27,086 nucleotides of DNA from a virus (Duplodnaviria > Caudoviricetes): the IMG/VR virus record IMGVR_UViG_3300035664_000071, positions 1 through 27,086 of that record. One strand, given 5' to 3'. The position numbers were made by a program, and so were the translations under genes. This document shows, piece by piece, positions 1,804 through 26,418 of this stretch (within the stretch, counting starts at the first letter, position 1; each line of letters opens with the position of its first letter). The notes under the pieces are model-generated. The model was not told where the DNA came from, ran no database searches, and saw only the letters and a list, made by a program, of their open reading frames with translations.

Positions 1804-1883
1804 TACGCAGTTACTTTAGTAGTTGGTTGGTTTATGATGTGCGAGCCGCATGACTTAGAGCGGCAGAAGGTTAGTGCTTTCAT
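1803..1883 (-). CDS. 26-aa micro-ORF MKALTFCRSKSCGSHIINQPTTKVTA
   Basis: Exactly fills the gap. ATGA overlap with the methyltransferase stop (1880-1883) and TAATG overlap with the portal start (1801-1805). Confidence 0.55.
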   Translation of the reverse strand: MKALTFCRSKSCGSHIINQPTTKVTA

Positions 1884-2446
1884 GGTTTCTGAATTAGCGA
1901 AAGGCCACGCCCCTCGGATGTGTTGAGCGTAATCACATTGTAGTTATAATGCGCTGCGTACTCCATCAGCTTCTTGACATCAGCAATATGAATCGTGTCA
2001 TGATAGGCAACGATGCCACCATTGGCAAGCACGCGCTCAACCTCTTTGAACTCGGGCAATATATTCTCCCAGCTGTGGTCTCCATCCACGAATATAAAAT
2101 CGAAGTGATTTGCCGGATAGCCTTTGAGCAATGTTATGGATTCGCCGAGTATAAACTCAACATCAGTGCCGAAGGATTTGAGGTCATGCTTAAGATAGTT
2201 GTTAATGTCGATGCCTGTGTACTTGCCACCGTATGGCATGGCTTCAATCATTTTAACGGCTGTCTCGCCTTCGAAAACGCCAATCTCGAGCACGTTCGCT
2301 GAATTGTTCATCTTGATAAGTGAGCCAATGAACTGACATACATCGGGCTCGCTGTTCCATCCGTGGCGCGCCACTTCGTTGAATGTGGCAGTTGTTACAA
2401 TCTTTTTAGGTCTGCCTCTCTTTGGCTTATCGCTTAGGGTCTGCAT
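1880..2446 (-). CDS. Class I SAM-dependent (O-)methyltransferase, Methyltransf_24-like
   Basis: VLEIGVFEGET motif I, GIDI, FDFIFVDGDHS and GGIVAYHD. Start ATG 2446 preferred over 2569 because it minimises overlap with the upstream gene. N-terminal KRGRPKK. Confidence 0.85.
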   Translation of the reverse strand: MQTLSDKPKRGRPKKIVTTATFNEVARHGWNSEPDVCQFIGSLIKMNNSANVLEIGVFEGETAVKMIEAMPYGGKYTGIDINNYLKHDLKSFGTDVEFILGESITLLKGYPANHFDFIFVDGDHSWENILPEFKEVERVLANGGIVAYHDTIHIADVKKLMEYAAHYNYNVITLNTSEGRGLSLIQKP

Positions 2447-3347
2447 GCTTATGGTCTGTAATTCGGTGAATGAAGTATTTGTGCTGGATGCCGTCCTGTT
2501 GCATCCATGCTTTAAGTTTCCTATCGAGCCATTCGATGTAAAAGGTCGGTGTGAATCCTTTGCCACCATAGTAGCTCATCAGGTAGAACCTTTCCTCGAT
2601 TTGCGCATAGCTGAACTCACGATTCATCTGAAAGCAGATAGCATCAATCTCATACGGCTTGAAGTTATTCTTGCCGAATGACACATTGAAGTAAAGCTCA
2701 TCGGGTTGCCCGCCACCCCATTTCATGCGGAGCTTGTTAATCGGCATCGGATTGTTGAGGTAAAGGTCGGCAGCTGTGCGGTAAATCGCTTCGGCCTCTG
2801 GGCACTTCTCAATGAACTGGATTGAGCTGTTTATCGCATAAATCTTGTCGGCTTTCGTCAATCCAAAGTGCTGCCATAGTTGGTCAGCCCACGCCCATTG
2901 CATCTCCTTGAAATCGCGGCCTTGGTCGATGGTATGCTCACCCACAACTCGCGTGGCATACTTTGCATCGTTCGCAATCAGCTGGTCGATTAGAGGCTGC
3001 AAATCCTTAAGGCATACAGCATCGACATCGAGGTAGAGGTTGTAATGGAACGGCAAGTAATCAAAGAGCAATACCTTCGCCTTGCCGGGGTCAAGTTTCT
3101 TATTCGTGTATATGTGCTGCTCGGGCAAGTCAACATACACATCGATTTGGTTTGTCAAGTCATGGCAATAGTACAAGGCCCTGTCCTTGCTATCGCTGAT
3201 TAGCGCAATCTGCAAATCCTTGTTGAATCGCTTAATCGAATACGCTAAGTTATAAGCAGCCCAGTAATACTGAGGCTTACCAAAAGCAACAAGCACCACC
3301 CCGCTCGAGGTAGGCTTGCCGCTTTGATTTGTGGTTTGAATATCCAT
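2427..3347 (-). CDS. GT-A fold glycosyltransferase (GT8-like / nucleotide-diphospho-sugar transferase)
   Basis: GVVLVAFGKPQYY...AYSIK N-terminus, K..LFDYLPF..NLYLDVDAVC (DxD), INSS and DELYFN motifs. Confidence 0.8.
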   Translation of the reverse strand: MDIQTTNQSGKPTSSGVVLVAFGKPQYYWAAYNLAYSIKRFNKDLQIALISDSKDRALYYCHDLTNQIDVYVDLPEQHIYTNKKLDPGKAKVLLFDYLPFHYNLYLDVDAVCLKDLQPLIDQLIANDAKYATRVVGEHTIDQGRDFKEMQWAWADQLWQHFGLTKADKIYAINSSIQFIEKCPEAEAIYRTAADLYLNNPMPINKLRMKWGGGQPDELYFNVSFGKNNFKPYEIDAICFQMNREFSYAQIEERFYLMSYYGGKGFTPTFYIEWLDRKLKAWMQQDGIQHKYFIHRITDHKHADPKR

Positions 3348-19489: not shown

Positions 19490-19722
19490 GATTCGTAGTT
19501 TTGGTTGTAGTATTGTTCGGATTCTGTTTGAAAAAAATCTTCGTCTTTAAACCAATATTCTGATGATAATGGTAATATGTAAGCGTTTTTTATCTGCTCC
19601 TTCTCCATTGCTTTTGCTTGCTCAACTAATTCTATGCTAATGTATGTTTGTCCAAATGCTTTTTGATATTCTTCGGAATGGATATATTGGACCAACCACT
19701 CAACTGCTGTCTGCTTTTTCAT
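19486..19722 (-). CDS. Hypothetical protein of the KQTAVEWL...AKAMEKEQI family
   Basis: Paralogous to 21657-21872. The alternative start is 19731. Confidence 0.75.
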   Translation of the reverse strand: MKKQTAVEWLVQYIHSEEYQKAFGQTYISIELVEQAKAMEKEQIKNAYILPLSSEYWFKDEDFFQTESEQYYNQNYES

Positions 19723-20839
19723 ATTGCTCAATAGCTTTGAAAATTTGGTGAACTACTTGCGGAACTATGGCGTTTCCTCCGGCTTTTATGGATTCGTTTC
19801 GCCATTTAGAAAAGGTAATTCCGTCCAGTCGGGAGGAAATCCCATCATCTCCAGTACAAATTGAGGATTGAGTTGGGAAGTTGTGCCAGTTTCCAATCTC
19901 GCCCGCTTCGTTAGTGAATCTTGATTTTCCAATCCCGTTACTTTCTCTCCGCAATCGGATGCCATTGGTGTCGGCAGCATCCCTTTCCTCGCCATTGTGC
20001 ATAGCCCAATTTGCAAATTTATCCCTTCCGATTTCTTCCTCTCGTATCTCGCATCCCACGCTTCCGGTGTGCTTCTGTCCTCCATTGCTGATGGTGTCGG
20101 TAGCAACCCCATTGCCATTGCTCGGCAAAGGGTTACACTGTGCATCGAGCCCTCCTTTACCTGGCTGCTTTTCATCGTTGCCGTTGCATTGGTTGAGTCC
20201 ATTGCCGTTGGGGTGGGGAGCATCCCGTGGAATTGCAGATGATCTAATATTGAGTTCGGTCTTGCTTCCCCGTTCGCTCTGCTGAACATTGATGTCGCTC
20301 CGGTTTCCTGTAGTGCTTGTACTCTGTCGGGGTGTTCCCTTTGGATTGCCGTTGGTGTGGGCAACAAACCAAACTCTGTCTCTTCGGTGCGGTGCGTTGA
20401 CGGCACAAGCTGGAAGTACATACGGTTGTACTTCGTACCCTTCAGCTTCCAAATCAGCCTGCACCTCGTGGAATACCAGCCCTCCTGACCAATTAACAAG
20501 GCCGAGAACGTTTTCGCCCACAACCCAACGCGGCTGAATTTCTCGAATCGCTCTAAGCATCTCCGGCCAGAGGTGTCGCTCATCTTCTTTTCCAAGTCGC
20601 TTTCCGGCCATTGAGTATGGCTGGCAGGGAAATCCCCCTGTGAGGATGTCAATTCTGCCTCTGTGAATAGTGAAATCTGTTTTGGTAATGTCTTCATAAC
20701 TGATTGCATTTGGAAAGTGATATTTTAATACTTTTTGCCCGAATGAATTCCACTCGCAGTGGAATATGTTCTCCCAACCCATCCACTCAGCGGCTAAATC
20801 AAAGCCGCCAATTCCGCTAAATAGTGATCCGTGTGTCAT
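19700..20839 (-). CDS. DNA cytosine-5 methyltransferase, alpha polypeptide
   Basis: Motif I FSGIGG, IV GFPCQ, VI ENV, VIII PHRRDRVW and X GNAIVPQV. No motif IX in this frame. Confidence 0.93.
   Translation of the reverse strand: MTHGSLFSGIGGFDLAAEWMGWENIFHCEWNSFGQKVLKYHFPNAISYEDITKTDFTIHRGRIDILTGGFPCQPYSMAGKRLGKEDERHLWPEMLRAIREIQPRWVVGENVLGLVNWSGGLVFHEVQADLEAEGYEVQPYVLPACAVNAPHRRDRVWFVAHTNGNPKGTPRQSTSTTGNRSDINVQQSERGSKTELNIRSSAIPRDAPHPNGNGLNQCNGNDEKQPGKGGLDAQCNPLPSNGNGVATDTISNGGQKHTGSVGCEIREEEIGRDKFANWAMHNGEERDAADTNGIRLRRESNGIGKSRFTNEAGEIGNWHNFPTQSSICTGDDGISSRLDGITFSKWRNESIKAGGNAIVPQVVHQIFKAIEQYEKADSS
19786..20709 (-). CDS. Nested alternate-frame beta polypeptide of the C5 methyltransferase
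   Basis: 307-aa open frame entirely inside the MTase gene. Ends in the motif IX-like LNPQFVLEMMGFPPDWT and has four G[LM]LPTP repeats. Confidence 0.75.
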   Translation of the reverse strand: MQSVMKTLPKQISLFTEAELTSSQGDFPASHTQWPESDLEKKMSDTSGRRCLERFEKFSRVGLWAKTFSALLIGQEGWYSTRCRLIWKLKGTKYNRMYFQLVPSTHRTEETEFGLLPTPTAIQREHPDRVQALQETGATSMFSRANGEARPNSILDHLQFHGMLPTPTAMDSTNATATMKSSQVKEGSMHSVTLCRAMAMGLLPTPSAMEDRSTPEAWDARYERKKSEGINLQIGLCTMARKGMLPTPMASDCGEKVTGLENQDSLTKRARLETGTTSQLNPQFVLEMMGFPPDWTELPFLNGETNP

Positions 20840-23942: not shown

Positions 23943-24587
23943 TTATTTTGCTCGACCAATTGCGAACCCTGTAATGCCACCAAGTGCGAAAGCGAATGCG
24001 CGTGTCTCATACCACTTCTTCGGCGGCTCAGCCACGATTATGTTGTTCATTCTGGTAACGGTTACATAAGGGTTATCAATGCCAAGCCGAACCACCTTGT
24101 CACGCTTACGCGATAGGAAGCCCTTACGCAGCGTATCTCCAATCGCAACGGTATAACTTACCGGAATGATAATTGAATCCAACTGAAGCCGTCCTGCGCG
24201 GCTTATTTGCCCACCTATCTCGAGCCACTTACCCGGCCGATGGAAGGTGCGAGGCAGGCGAAGGTGCGGAAAGCTATCAATGTACACGGTCTCGCCAAGT
24301 TCTACTTGCGTCACCACCTTGGTCCGCGTTTGGTACCTGATCACCACCTCAGGCTCACGCAATTCCAAGGCTCGCAGCTTGGTGCCTGCCGCTGCCAGCT
24401 GCACGCCTTGGCTGTGCATCTTGCTGCTATCTCTCGCAATGCGCACAGCGTACTCATTATTGAGCGAATCGAGATACCTCGCATTGCTTTCTGCCTCACC
24501 TAATGCTCCGCAAGTGCGCATCAAAAGCAGCAAAAGAAATAGGCATATTGCCAACAGGCTTAACGTGCTGATGTTGCTTTGCTGCAT
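23943..24587 (-). CDS. Spanin-like protein (possible unimolecular spanin)
   Basis: N-terminal hydrophobic helix ending LLMRTC (lipobox-like), coiled coil, beta region, and C-terminal KKWYE plus Gly-rich TM. Last gene of the lysis cassette. Confidence 0.6.
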   Translation of the reverse strand: MQQSNISTLSLLAICLFLLLLLMRTCGALGEAESNARYLDSLNNEYAVRIARDSSKMHSQGVQLAAAGTKLRALELREPEVVIRYQTRTKVVTQVELGETVYIDSFPHLRLPRTFHRPGKWLEIGGQISRAGRLQLDSIIIPVSYTVAIGDTLRKGFLSRKRDKVVRLGIDNPYVTVTRMNNIIVAEPPKKWYETRAFAFALGGITGFAIGRAK

Positions 24588-24754
24588 TTGATTAGTTCGT
24601 TTAATCGTTTGAGATAAGTGCTTTTATCGCGCAGCTCGTTGAGCAATATATCGCCCGCCACCTTAATCGGCATTGCCTTCTCGGCTATGTACACAGCCAG
24701 CACCTTCACAAGTCGCTCATCGCATTCGCAATCGGTGGCCGGTAGGTTGCTCAT
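24560..24754 (-). CDS. Hypothetical 64-aa protein with CEC motif
   Basis: ATGA-coupled to the PAS-HisKA gene and overlaps the spanin start. Confidence 0.6.
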   Translation of the reverse strand: MSNLPATDCECDERLVKVLAVYIAEKAMPIKVAGDILLNELRDKSTYLKRLNELIKCSKATSAR

Positions 24755-25317
24755 AATTGCCGTGTTGCTTTTTTGACCAATAGCCGAATCACATTGTCGA
24801 GCTTTTCAACGCTGTCCTCGAGCATCTTCATCACTCCATCGCGTTCCTGATCGGTTGCCCAAGTGTGCTCGTTTATCATTTTCACCAATCCACCGATCGA
24901 TGTCAACGGCTGACGAAGTTCGTGCGATAAGGTAAAGCGAAACTCTTCGAGCAGCATCTTTTGCCGTTCGTATTCGTGGTTGCTTATGGAAGTAACATCG
25001 ACCAGCTGAATGCCGATGAAGTGCAGCATATCTACAATGGCGTAAACATTCCACATATTGAAGCGCTCGGATGCAATCTTCTGCTTAGTCTTTGCGTATG
25101 CCCGAATCGGGTCGGGCGATTTGGTTTGGGCCTTGCGAATGGCTGCAAGCAGTTCATCGCGGTCGCTATCTTGCGCTGCGATGTCGAGGATATTGCCGGG
25201 CTTTATGTGGCTGGAGTATTCGCGAAATAGGTCATTCGTGGTGACGATGTTGCCATCCCTGTCGGTGATCACATAGAAGAGGTCAATTGATGACTCAAGG
25301 ATGTGCAGCGATGCCAT
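24751..25317 (-). CDS. PAS + HisKA (DHp) protein lacking the HATPase_c domain
   Basis: PAS-like ILESSIDLFYVITDRDGNIVTTN...IGIQLVDVT, a coiled linker, and H-box SHELRQPLTSIGGLV. It stops after DHp helix 2. 188 aa from ATG 25317. Confidence 0.85.
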   Translation of the reverse strand: MASLHILESSIDLFYVITDRDGNIVTTNDLFREYSSHIKPGNILDIAAQDSDRDELLAAIRKAQTKSPDPIRAYAKTKQKIASERFNMWNVYAIVDMLHFIGIQLVDVTSISNHEYERQKMLLEEFRFTLSHELRQPLTSIGGLVKMINEHTWATDQERDGVMKMLEDSVEKLDNVIRLLVKKATRQL

Positions 25318-25321
25318 GCTG

Positions 25322-25329
25322 CAAAGATA
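25322..25329 (-). promoter_or_regulatory. -7 promoter element TATCTTTG upstream of PAS-HisKA
   Basis: TAnnTTTG in a 14-nt intergenic gap, 4 nt before the ATG. Confidence 0.6.
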
Positions 25330-25331
25330 CG

Positions 25332-25724
25332 TTAAACCGAACGTAAATCCGCAATTAATGAACGCCATGCTGGCACACATCCGAGCGCATACTTGATGGT
25401 AAGCAGCATCGTGAAGGTGAGCACAATTCCGTTTGCGAGTATATCGTAATTCATAGGCGTTGGCATTTCCGGCTCGTTTCTTACAGCGTGAGTTTTCGGG
25501 ATGTAATACGTGGCGGCTGGGTACAAAGATACATCACACGGCTGAATCGTGTCGAATGCCGTTAGCACTTTCGCCTTTGCCGGCTGTGCCATCACCGCCT
25601 GAAAGCTCTCACGATTCGCCTGGGCGAATGAGGTGTCGGCATTAGCAGCCTCCCAGCTCATCGTGTCAATGTTGAGCTTGCTGTGGCGCACTACTTTGAT
25701 GGTATCTCTACGAATCTGTTGCAT
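25332..25724 (-). CDS. Hypothetical membrane protein in the lysis cassette
   Basis: C-terminal TM ILANGIVLTFTMLLTIKYALG; overlaps the holin end. Confidence 0.6.
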   Translation of the reverse strand: MQQIRRDTIKVVRHSKLNIDTMSWEAANADTSFAQANRESFQAVMAQPAKAKVLTAFDTIQPCDVSLYPAATYYIPKTHAVRNEPEMPTPMNYDILANGIVLTFTMLLTIKYALGCVPAWRSLIADLRSV

Positions 25725-25914
25725 CGCTTTTGGCTTTTGGTATGTACCCTGCGGCTAATAGTGCTGCAATTATGGCGGTTAATGTCTCGGCTGTTATCAC
25801 TTTGAAGATAAGTAGGAAGATGGACACCAGAATCATAAGCGAACCGATTGTGCCGCGCCAGTGCTTCACAATCACATCGAGTATTCGCCTTTGCTTGGTA
25901 GCCCTTTTTCGCAT
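25708..25914 (-). CDS. Putative class II holin (2 TM)
   Basis: Basic N-terminus, two hydrophobic helices and a charged tail; next to the endolysin. Alternative GTG start at 25929. Confidence 0.65.
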   Translation of the reverse strand: MRKRATKQRRILDVIVKHWRGTIGSLMILVSIFLLIFKVITAETLTAIIAALLAAGYIPKAKSDATDS

Positions 25915-25959
25915 ATCTAATATACGCACACGCCAGCGCGGCGTTGGGGCAAGATGGGG

Positions 25960-26418
25960 CTAAATGTTACAAAGTGAGAAATAGAGATTCGCCTCTTCGC
26001 GGCGGCGGTTCGTTAGCCCTGAGAGCACCTTCCCGCTCGCCTTGTTCCAACGAAGGAACTCATCGAGGATGCTTGGGTCGGCTGAGTTGGCTTTGGCTTT
26101 TTTCAACAGCGTTGACTTAACCAACGCCCCAGTCCCTACGTTATATGCAAAGCACACAAGCGCATCGAACTGGCATTGGTTGAGGTTAGGTAGGTGCTTA
26201 TTGACTGCCGACTCGAATGGGTCAAGCGTGGATAGTAGCAATTGCGTTGCTTCCTTCTCGCCGCTCAGCTTTTCGCCGAGGATAACCTTCTTACCATTCG
26301 GGTAGCGTGTCGAGCCGTAGCCAATGGTCGGCACTCCGGCTGGGCATAGGTAGCTTGAGAGCCTCAATCCCTCGTACTTCTTAATCAGATTAAGCCCGAG
26401 AATTGAGGTGCTGCGCAT
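25960..26418 (-). CDS. GH24 lysozyme endolysin
   Basis: EGLRL..Y.CPAGVPTIGYG, QFDALV.F.YNVG and GLTNRRREEA motifs. Confidence 0.95.
   Translation of the reverse strand: MRSTSILGLNLIKKYEGLRLSSYLCPAGVPTIGYGSTRYPNGKKVILGEKLSGEKEATQLLLSTLDPFESAVNKHLPNLNQCQFDALVCFAYNVGTGALVKSTLLKKAKANSADPSILDEFLRWNKASGKVLSGLTNRRREEANLYFSLCNI

Follow-up and report, generated by a model that had tools for sequence, protein, structure and literature searches.

Bacillus Spo0B is a phosphotransfer protein of the DHp type and, like PhyK and ChpT, keeps a whole or degenerate ATPase-like domain and possesses no single fused PAS domain. Caulobacter PhyK, a DHp protein that does not autophosphorylate, takes phosphate from the single-domain protein MrrA and passes it on, and LovK and LovR act as a sink (PMC5964349). 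PhyK and ChpT, the latter named in PMC8534201, have in common a histidine-bearing DHp domain, no autokinase activity, and a supply of phosphate that depends on receivers. The stretch of DNA analysed here (the window) is IMG/VR virus record IMGVR_UViG_3300035664_000071, positions 1 to 27,086, from a member of the Caudoviricetes (Duplodnaviria). Among genes resembling a lysis cassette, it encodes a protein of 188 amino acids (aa), referred to below as PAS-DHp, in which a PAS domain is followed by a DHp domain carrying an invariant histidine. By analogy, it may be an acceptor of the PhyK, ChpT, and Spo0B kind, but it lacks the ATPase domain, is encoded by a virus, and comes with an extra coupled protein.

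Both domains of PAS-DHp had been predicted from the sequence, and both are recovered. A HisKA match (PF00512) scores 30.5 bits against a cut-off of 26.9, and, although no Pfam PAS model matches the protein, its AlphaFold model (predicted local distance difference test [pLDDT] score of 78.6) has a five-stranded PAS fold followed by a hairpin of two long helices. The PAS domain would extend over residues 10–107 approximately and the DHp domain over residues 113–187 approximately, joined by a DVT hinge and a coiled coil. The best solved-structure matches in both fold and profile searches are LOV–histidine kinase chimeras and PAS domains, with target TM-scores of about 0.7 for the PAS-domain matches from Foldseek. 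FixL and the LOV–FixL chimera YF1 (PDB 4gcz) share the same order of PAS domain, D-I/V-T hinge, coiled coil, and HisKA H-box; the viral protein, however, has no HATPase_c domain, no LOV cysteine or motif, and no cognate receiver. The chain terminates with the second DHp helix, which bears out the reported lack of an ATP-binding domain. This is not a break, because relatives have the same length (183–189 aa), and the fixed length together with purifying selection excludes a broken kinase or a frameshift. A LOV or cysteine-based redox sensor is also ruled out: PAS-DHp contains no cysteine, and the LOV motif (NCRFLQ, with its flavin-binding cysteine) is missing, the corresponding region being deleted in the alignment to 4gcz. 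The redox gating that had been suggested thus finds no support in the protein. The gene most likely starts at 25317 (188 aa) and not at 25380 (209 aa).

PAS-DHp relatives are encoded in 405 of 424 pattern-matched stretches in viral contigs (at least 405 contigs), subsets of which were examined in detail. Across 190 distinct coding sequences the predicted phospho-acceptor, His132, is present without exception, as the original prediction supposed, and its H-box neighbours are nearly invariant (Glu133 in 188, Pro137 in 188, and Thr139 in 186). The same 190 of 190 is reached by the PAS pocket residues N28, F31, S36, H37, P40, R72, and K80, by D107 of the D-I/V-T hinge, and by Y34, N90, G102, K183, and R186; residues M165, L173, D174, K183, and R186, at the dimer interface and C terminus, are nearly invariant. 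When the alignment is taken down to about 20%–30% identity, N28 and the histidine alone are invariant in all 32 rows. Selection was estimated by pairwise counting, using only pairs with a synonymous divergence (dS) of 0.1–1.2. In the window's clade, PAS-DHp has a ratio of nonsynonymous to synonymous divergence (dN/dS) of 0.078, with 0.056 over the DHp half and 0.099 over the PAS half; in two other clades the values are 0.089 and 0.101. The value in the window's clade is the lowest in the cassette, in which the lysozyme has 0.104, the holin-like protein 0.092, the 130-aa protein 0.159, the 64-aa protein 0.113, and the 214-aa protein 0.167, and the DHp half is the most constrained part. The ratios therefore lie at about 0.08–0.10 and not near 1, and homologues are many and their context conserved, not few or randomly placed. 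It is accordingly very improbable that a host gene fragment was captured once and has since been carried neutrally within the block. The host origin of the family and the conservation of whole-genome order in most relatives would suit such a passenger, but dN/dS values of this size in three clades, a fixed length, invariant histidine and PAS residues, and a retained promoter motif would not.

An invariant histidine in a protein with no ATPase domain implies that the phosphate comes from elsewhere. Neither the receiver (PF00072) nor the HATPase (PF02518) model matched in any of five related records, four of them complete, and no longer or fused protein of the PAS-DHp family was found among 7997 scored candidates, which is weak evidence; the search for longer proteins returned ordinary kinases only, matching 26%–36% of the query. 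Within the window, a receiver domain is absent among the 39 open reading frames (ORFs) scanned, in keeping with the reported lack of a response regulator. A DHp protein without an ATPase cannot phosphorylate itself, and the virus supplies no donor in the related records searched, so that phosphate would have to be provided by host proteins. The reading preferred here, to which we give a probability of roughly 0.4, is that PAS-DHp may be a PAS-gated acceptor of phosphate from host response regulators, draining or rerouting host signalling. PAS-DHp would dimerise through its DHp domain, and its PAS pocket would receive a ligand or a cue on the state of the cell that sets, via the DVT hinge and coiled coil, whether the histidine is available. 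It would act on single-domain receivers of the host, similar to those that adjoin some of its host relatives, while the product of the adjoining 64-aa gene would bind PAS-DHp in a fixed ratio as a putative regulator or effector. Given its place among envelope genes, the pathway dampened would likely be an envelope or stress response, at a time when membrane proteins accumulate.

Several points weigh against this reading. HisKA phosphatases carry the motif E/D-x-x-T/N after the histidine, with threonine or asparagine at H+4; the viral sequence is E-L-R-Q, and this position is glutamine in 187 of the 190 sequences, asparagine in two, and serine in one. A true phosphatase, as had been proposed, is thus doubtful, albeit the glutamine might serve, and simple phosphatase action is less likely than transfer. 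Four of 27 stand-alone host relatives do have a single-domain receiver within 700 nucleotides (nt), which speaks for the reading, but none adjoins the other 23, whose neighbours point to no shared pathway. Most viral loci come from related phages in which the wider gene order is also conserved. Elements whose lysins differ, moreover, all keep PAS-DHp in tight linkage with the holin-like, 130-aa, and 214-aa genes, which a host-signalling role explains loosely and a role in lysis explains better. Lastly, conservation of the histidine could be structural. Were it to serve docking or folding, PAS-DHp could be a phosphate-independent decoy, forming mixed dimers with host kinases or with host ATPase-less PAS-DHp proteins, or sequestering a receiver, and so blocking them. 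The nearly invariant interface residues, the want of a canonical phosphatase residue, and a profile match to the host ATPase-less family over both PAS and DHp (probability 99.4%) agree with a decoy, which we nonetheless regard as improbable: the histidine is kept in the most distant rows of the alignment while its neighbours vary, it survives replacement of the helix around it (see below), and a protein that served purely as a decoy should have no use for a PAS pocket that never varies.

The linkage to envelope genes was quantified after removal of repeat fetches of the same contigs (L081–L139, L266, and L308–L310) and of loci with short flanks; neighbour profiles were built from some of the counted loci. 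The 64-aa gene directly follows PAS-DHp in 226 of 226 loci, and the ATGA overlap is used by 247 of 250 called downstream ORFs (a count that includes repeats). The 130-aa gene is directly upstream in 227 of 230, and the 214-aa gene downstream in 201 of 205; in 172 of 178, a lysozyme lies upstream at no more than 2.3 kb. Because the loci are mostly from related, syntenic phages, they do not amount to independent observations. Elsewhere the block has different companions. In L142 and L287, the place of the 214-aa gene is taken by an unrelated lipoprotein, which has a C-terminal helix and lies upstream; this supports a spanin-like role for both proteins. The block comes after an M15 peptidase in L294, whereas in L289, L295, and L296 it runs towards convergent genes for C-terminally anchored muramidases, CarboxypepD_reg proteins, and LEA_2-like proteins; the viral collection yielded no relative of the L295 muramidase. 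L289, L294, L295, and L296 are metagenome contigs of 7–67 kb, rich in C-terminally anchored membrane proteins and in LEA_2-like proteins, and possibly belong to a membrane-containing virus. L289 and L306 lack the holin-like and 130-aa genes upstream of PAS-DHp, and L304 has its 130-aa gene at a distance of 4.3 kb, beyond methylases on the opposite strand. With these exceptions, the constant core is PAS-DHp plus the 64-aa gene, and the envelope block is a usual but separable companion. A fusion with the 130-aa gene was considered and rejected, since the spacing varies from −47 to +22 nt between clades and no fused form is seen.

Lysis timing had been proposed as one role. As a timer, PAS-DHp would read a host phosphorelay together with a PAS cue and use the 64-aa protein to signal to the holin-like, the 130-aa, or the spanin-like protein, bringing bursting forward or putting it off according to the state of the cell. 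The counts above favour such a timer, and the block is kept both where the lysin is an M15 peptidase or a muramidase (L294, L295, and L296) and where the spanin-like gene is replaced (L142 and L287). Selection on PAS-DHp is as strong as on essential lysis genes, and a periplasmic domain and helix followed by PAS-DHp resembles, in its order, a split membrane sensor. Against this, PAS-DHp's own promoter motif lies downstream of the holin-like gene, three loci (L289, L304, and L306) separate PAS-DHp from the holin-like and 130-aa genes, and the linkage may be owed to inheritance among syntenic phages. The promoter motif and the split loci lower the odds of a direct tie to lysis timing, which we judge rather unlikely, though it is the chief rival of the host-signalling reading. 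A similarly doubtful combination of the two roles would have PAS-DHp act as a listening post, phosphorylated by host response regulators, and set holin and spanin timing with the 64-aa protein as adaptor and a membrane partner. If true, this would be a widespread and mobile lysis-control module of Bacteroidota viruses by which a phage times bursting from the state of host two-component signalling, encoding neither kinase nor regulator and swapping its docking helix to follow the host.

The promoter proposed for PAS-DHp is represented by an intact TAnnTTTG sequence, which we take to be the Bacteroidota −7 element, four bases before the start codon. Every locus of the window's clade (87 of 87) carries the motif in the same position, within 80 nt of the start; it is also within 80 nt in 9 of 11 loci of the L183 type, in nine of nine from L289 to L297, and in L304. 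The background is 460 of 8850 random 80-nt windows (5%). It is rare near the start in two other clades (1 of 38 and 0 of 80), in the L272 type (0 of 7), and in the L142 type (0 of 3). In the two large clades, it lies about 300–325 nt upstream, within the 130-aa gene (60 of 61 loci in one count; bins of 19 and 15 of 34 in the other). Different amino acids are encoded there in the two clades, and the synonymous positions needed for the motif are fixed, albeit a quarter to a third of the conserved codons in that region are fixed anyway (27 of 88 and 18 of 73). The window's own 130-aa gene likewise contains a copy of the motif, and 23 of 69 loci of its clade have one in a comparable position. This distribution suggests a separate promoter for the PAS-DHp, 64-aa, and 214-aa genes, which could be transcribed apart from the lysozyme and holin-like genes. 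Since TAnnTTTG also precedes late genes in the window, it gives no information on when PAS-DHp is expressed.

ATPase-less PAS–HisKA proteins had been said to occur in Bacteroidota chromosomes, and they do exist, as the sister group of the viral family. In a representative search, 42 of 71 long relatives end right after the DHp domain; 19 of 201 sampled Bacteroidota genomes have a strong match, and 21 of 34 matched ORFs in fetched Bacteroidota loci are ATPase-less, several then being followed by single-domain receivers. L336 is a chromosomal 209-aa protein with a single PAS-DHp unit beside a divergent receiver gene. Its type occurs in 16 of 121 genomes of its genome's family and has relatives in named records of Pedobacter, Mucilaginibacter, Pontibacter, Arcticibacter, Flavipsychrobacter, and Chitinophagaceae. 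L336 and L366–L393 hold a stand-alone ATPase-less family of about 200 aa, along with many multi-PAS versions. These (PAS)n-DHp proteins have the same architecture and end point as the viral one, but the H-box is QSHxxR[RAK]P, where the viral one is LSHELRQP, and the 64-aa partner and envelope cassette are missing. The top DHp matches for G001 are ordinary full kinases, and a search with one protein for cellular multi-PAS relatives returned remote matches only. In a quick tree rooted on four full kinases, with no bootstrap and using 16 of 27 short host rows plus 8 of the multi-PAS rows, 16 chromosomal stand-alone proteins join 43 viral or short unplaced proteins with a Shimodaira–Hasegawa-like approximate likelihood ratio test (SH-aLRT) value of 99, the viral side having 89. 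By this tree, the viral family is sister to the host family and not nested in it. Of the suggested host derivation, the sister relationship holds; with the wider host family lying basally, the gene would have passed from host to phage. Scans for the most distant short relatives (P0129, P0136, P0147, and others, of 20%–39% identity) gave no locus, and cultured phages yielded no PAS-DHp or 214-aa gene at the limits used, with three short partial matches only.

Further evidence on the partner comes from a pair of viral loci. Neighbouring genes in L142 and L287 are 76%–98% identical, whereas PAS-DHp is 47% identical overall and 29% identical over the linker and first DHp helix (residues 105–150). 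L287 and L306 share the new helix, with the histidine kept and purifying selection evident (dN 0.07, dS 1.30); in both (L287:8001-8552 and L306:765-1316), the replaced docking helix reads NHDVINN and restores a D-x-x-N motif. The first DHp helix is where receivers dock. A swap here, with no matching change in the 64-aa protein, suggests that the surface faces a changeable partner outside the cassette, likely a host protein.

That 64-aa protein is predicted to consist of three helices (pLDDT 82.8). It has no Pfam, PHROG, NCBIfam, or PDB sequence match; a sequence search found close relatives only and a fold search generic helical matches (best Z 6.3). Its overlapping start codon is as first described, and the gene is never missing beside viral PAS-DHp. 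No copy was found near chromosomal PAS-DHp relatives, and among 301 Bacteroidota genomes it is on a phage-like contig only. Small DHp-binding proteins such as Sda and KipI exist, and Sda is a small helical inhibitor of KinA and KinB (PMC8534201). Sda is a possible model for how the 64-aa protein might act on a DHp domain, from which it differs in blocking a complete kinase; no sequence or fold match between the two was found. The constant company of the 64-aa gene, found in the phage loci and absent from chromosomal relatives, would also fit a self-contained switch. In it, the PAS domain would sense a small molecule, either a metabolite or a signal between phages, and the helical part would retain or free the 64-aa protein, the effector on a host or phage target, with host phosphorelays uninvolved. 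VqmA is a transcription factor that joins a PAS domain to a helix–turn–helix. Its phage form is a precedent for a phage PAS receptor, and its structure (PDB 7dwm) is among the fold matches; it is likewise a phage PAS sensor, but not an ATPase-less DHp protein in a lysis cassette. Pairwise identities of PAS-DHp and the 64-aa protein co-vary (Spearman 0.68, 21 loci), as is expected from shared descent too. The switch is distinctly improbable: it leaves the invariant H-box unexplained, and the 64-aa protein remains 76% identical where the DHp helix is swapped.

The order of the cassette is as originally described, with all genes on the minus strand (Table 1). For the holin and spanin, the positions are right and the names are topology-based, no significant family match having been found. 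The holin-like protein has a weak match to a holin family (phrog_565, E 0.01), and its position beside the endolysin and two hydrophobic segments would fit a holin. In the 130-aa protein, the C-terminal helix is followed by a conserved amphipathic W-x-x-L stretch. Its N-terminal part is probably periplasmic, since D-[ST]-hydrophobic sequons, presumably the Bacteroidota O-glycosylation motif, occur three times in 130 aa, compared with four in 2652 aa of cytoplasmic phage proteins. The 214-aa protein comprises an N-terminal hydrophobic segment, a coiled coil, a beta-rich part, and a glycine-rich hydrophobic C terminus, the last exceeding the hydropathy threshold in 7 of 11 rows, the window's copy not among them. 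A conserved cysteine follows the hydrophobic segment in 10 of 11 aligned rows, in a non-consensus box reading MRTC or xRSC. A unimolecular spanin has an N-terminal lipoprotein signal with the lipobox [LVI][ASTVI][GAS]C (PMC6139136) and a C-terminal transmembrane helix, an outline that appears to be matched only in part. Species genomes yielded no member of the 214-aa family. Several lineages carry, between the endolysin and the holin-like gene, a protein of about 256 aa with a signal peptide, which is absent from the window. It has no family match, and its C-terminal tail resembles what we take to be a type IX secretion signal.

Table 1. Positions of the cassette features in the window and of a signal-peptide protein found in related loci.
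Feature	Position	Strand	Basis or remark
214-aa envelope protein, unimolecular-spanin-like (inferred)	23943..24587	minus	topology
64-aa three-helix protein, start codon overlapping PAS-DHp stop (ATGA)	24560..24754	minus	ORF call, model
ATPase-less PAS-DHp protein, 188 aa	24751..25317	minus	HisKA match, model, fold search
His132 codon CAC in LSHELRQPL (H-box SHELRQPLT)	24922..24924	minus	phospho-acceptor position
TATCTTTG, TAnnTTTG motif	25322..25329	minus	4 nt before PAS-DHp ATG at 25317
130-aa protein, one C-terminal hydrophobic segment	25332..25724	minus	hydropathy, alignment
Second TAnnTTTG, inside 130-aa gene	25524..25531	minus	motif scan
Holin-like protein, 68 aa, two hydrophobic segments	25708..25914	minus	hydropathy 22-40, 41-59; label inferred
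Endolysin, phage lysozyme, 152 aa	25960..26418	minus	PF00959 133 bits; phrog_7
Signal-peptide protein, about 256 aa	L183:6476-7252, L268:6477-7253, L294:3394-4164, L291:1238-2008, L287:4767-5534		

The window is a linear record estimated to be 78% complete, and matches to terminase, portal, helicase, and primase on the minus strand identify a tailed phage. Its host is most likely a member of the Bacteroidota, judging by the primase matches, of which 22 of 25 records in cultured phages are from phages of Flavobacterium, Nonlabens, or Cellulophaga, and by an excess of TAnnTTTG (27 occurrences where 15.65 are expected, a number reached in 0 of 100 shuffles). L140, L141, and L142 are short cassette contigs binned in metagenome-assembled genomes of three different phyla; they are probably mis-binned phage fragments and hence no guide to the host. 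A temperate lifestyle is unsupported, no tyrosine integrase being matched in the five related records, in which serine integrases were not searched. Elsewhere in the window, a 307-aa ORF (19786-20709, minus strand) is nested in another frame of a C5 cytosine methylase (19700-20839, minus strand). Both frames match methyltransferase PHROGs, and the nested one is open in 13 of 16 related loci; the arrangement resembles split methylases of the M.EcoHK31I type, in which an alternative frame encodes the second subunit. Among the head genes, an O-methyltransferase-like gene and a weakly glycosyltransferase-like gene (1880-3347, minus strand) possibly serve virion or surface modification.

A literature search, with subscription papers and supplements outside its scope, found no description of a phage ATPase-less PAS-DHp protein or of the Bacteroidota family, and histidine kinases do not come up in the main text of a paper on flavobacterial phages (PMC8776804). 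In Clostridioides phage phiCDHM1, AgrC is likewise a host-derived phage sensor without a response regulator, but it is a quorum-sensing membrane kinase accompanied by AgrB and AgrD and not an ATPase-less DHp protein in a lysis cassette (PMC3901668). The module of PAS-DHp and the 64-aa protein is real, strongly selected, and undescribed, and is built from known parts. Few cases are known of phages that sense or silence host two-component signalling. Here, two genes under selection as strong as that on the endolysin recur in hundreds of viral contigs and are small enough for direct tests. They also draw attention to a large family of chromosomal ATPase-less PAS-DHp proteins in the Bacteroidota that seems to have gone unstudied, and the phage copy could reveal how this family works. 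If PAS-DHp sets the time of lysis, it would provide a molecular handle on how the latent period follows host physiology.

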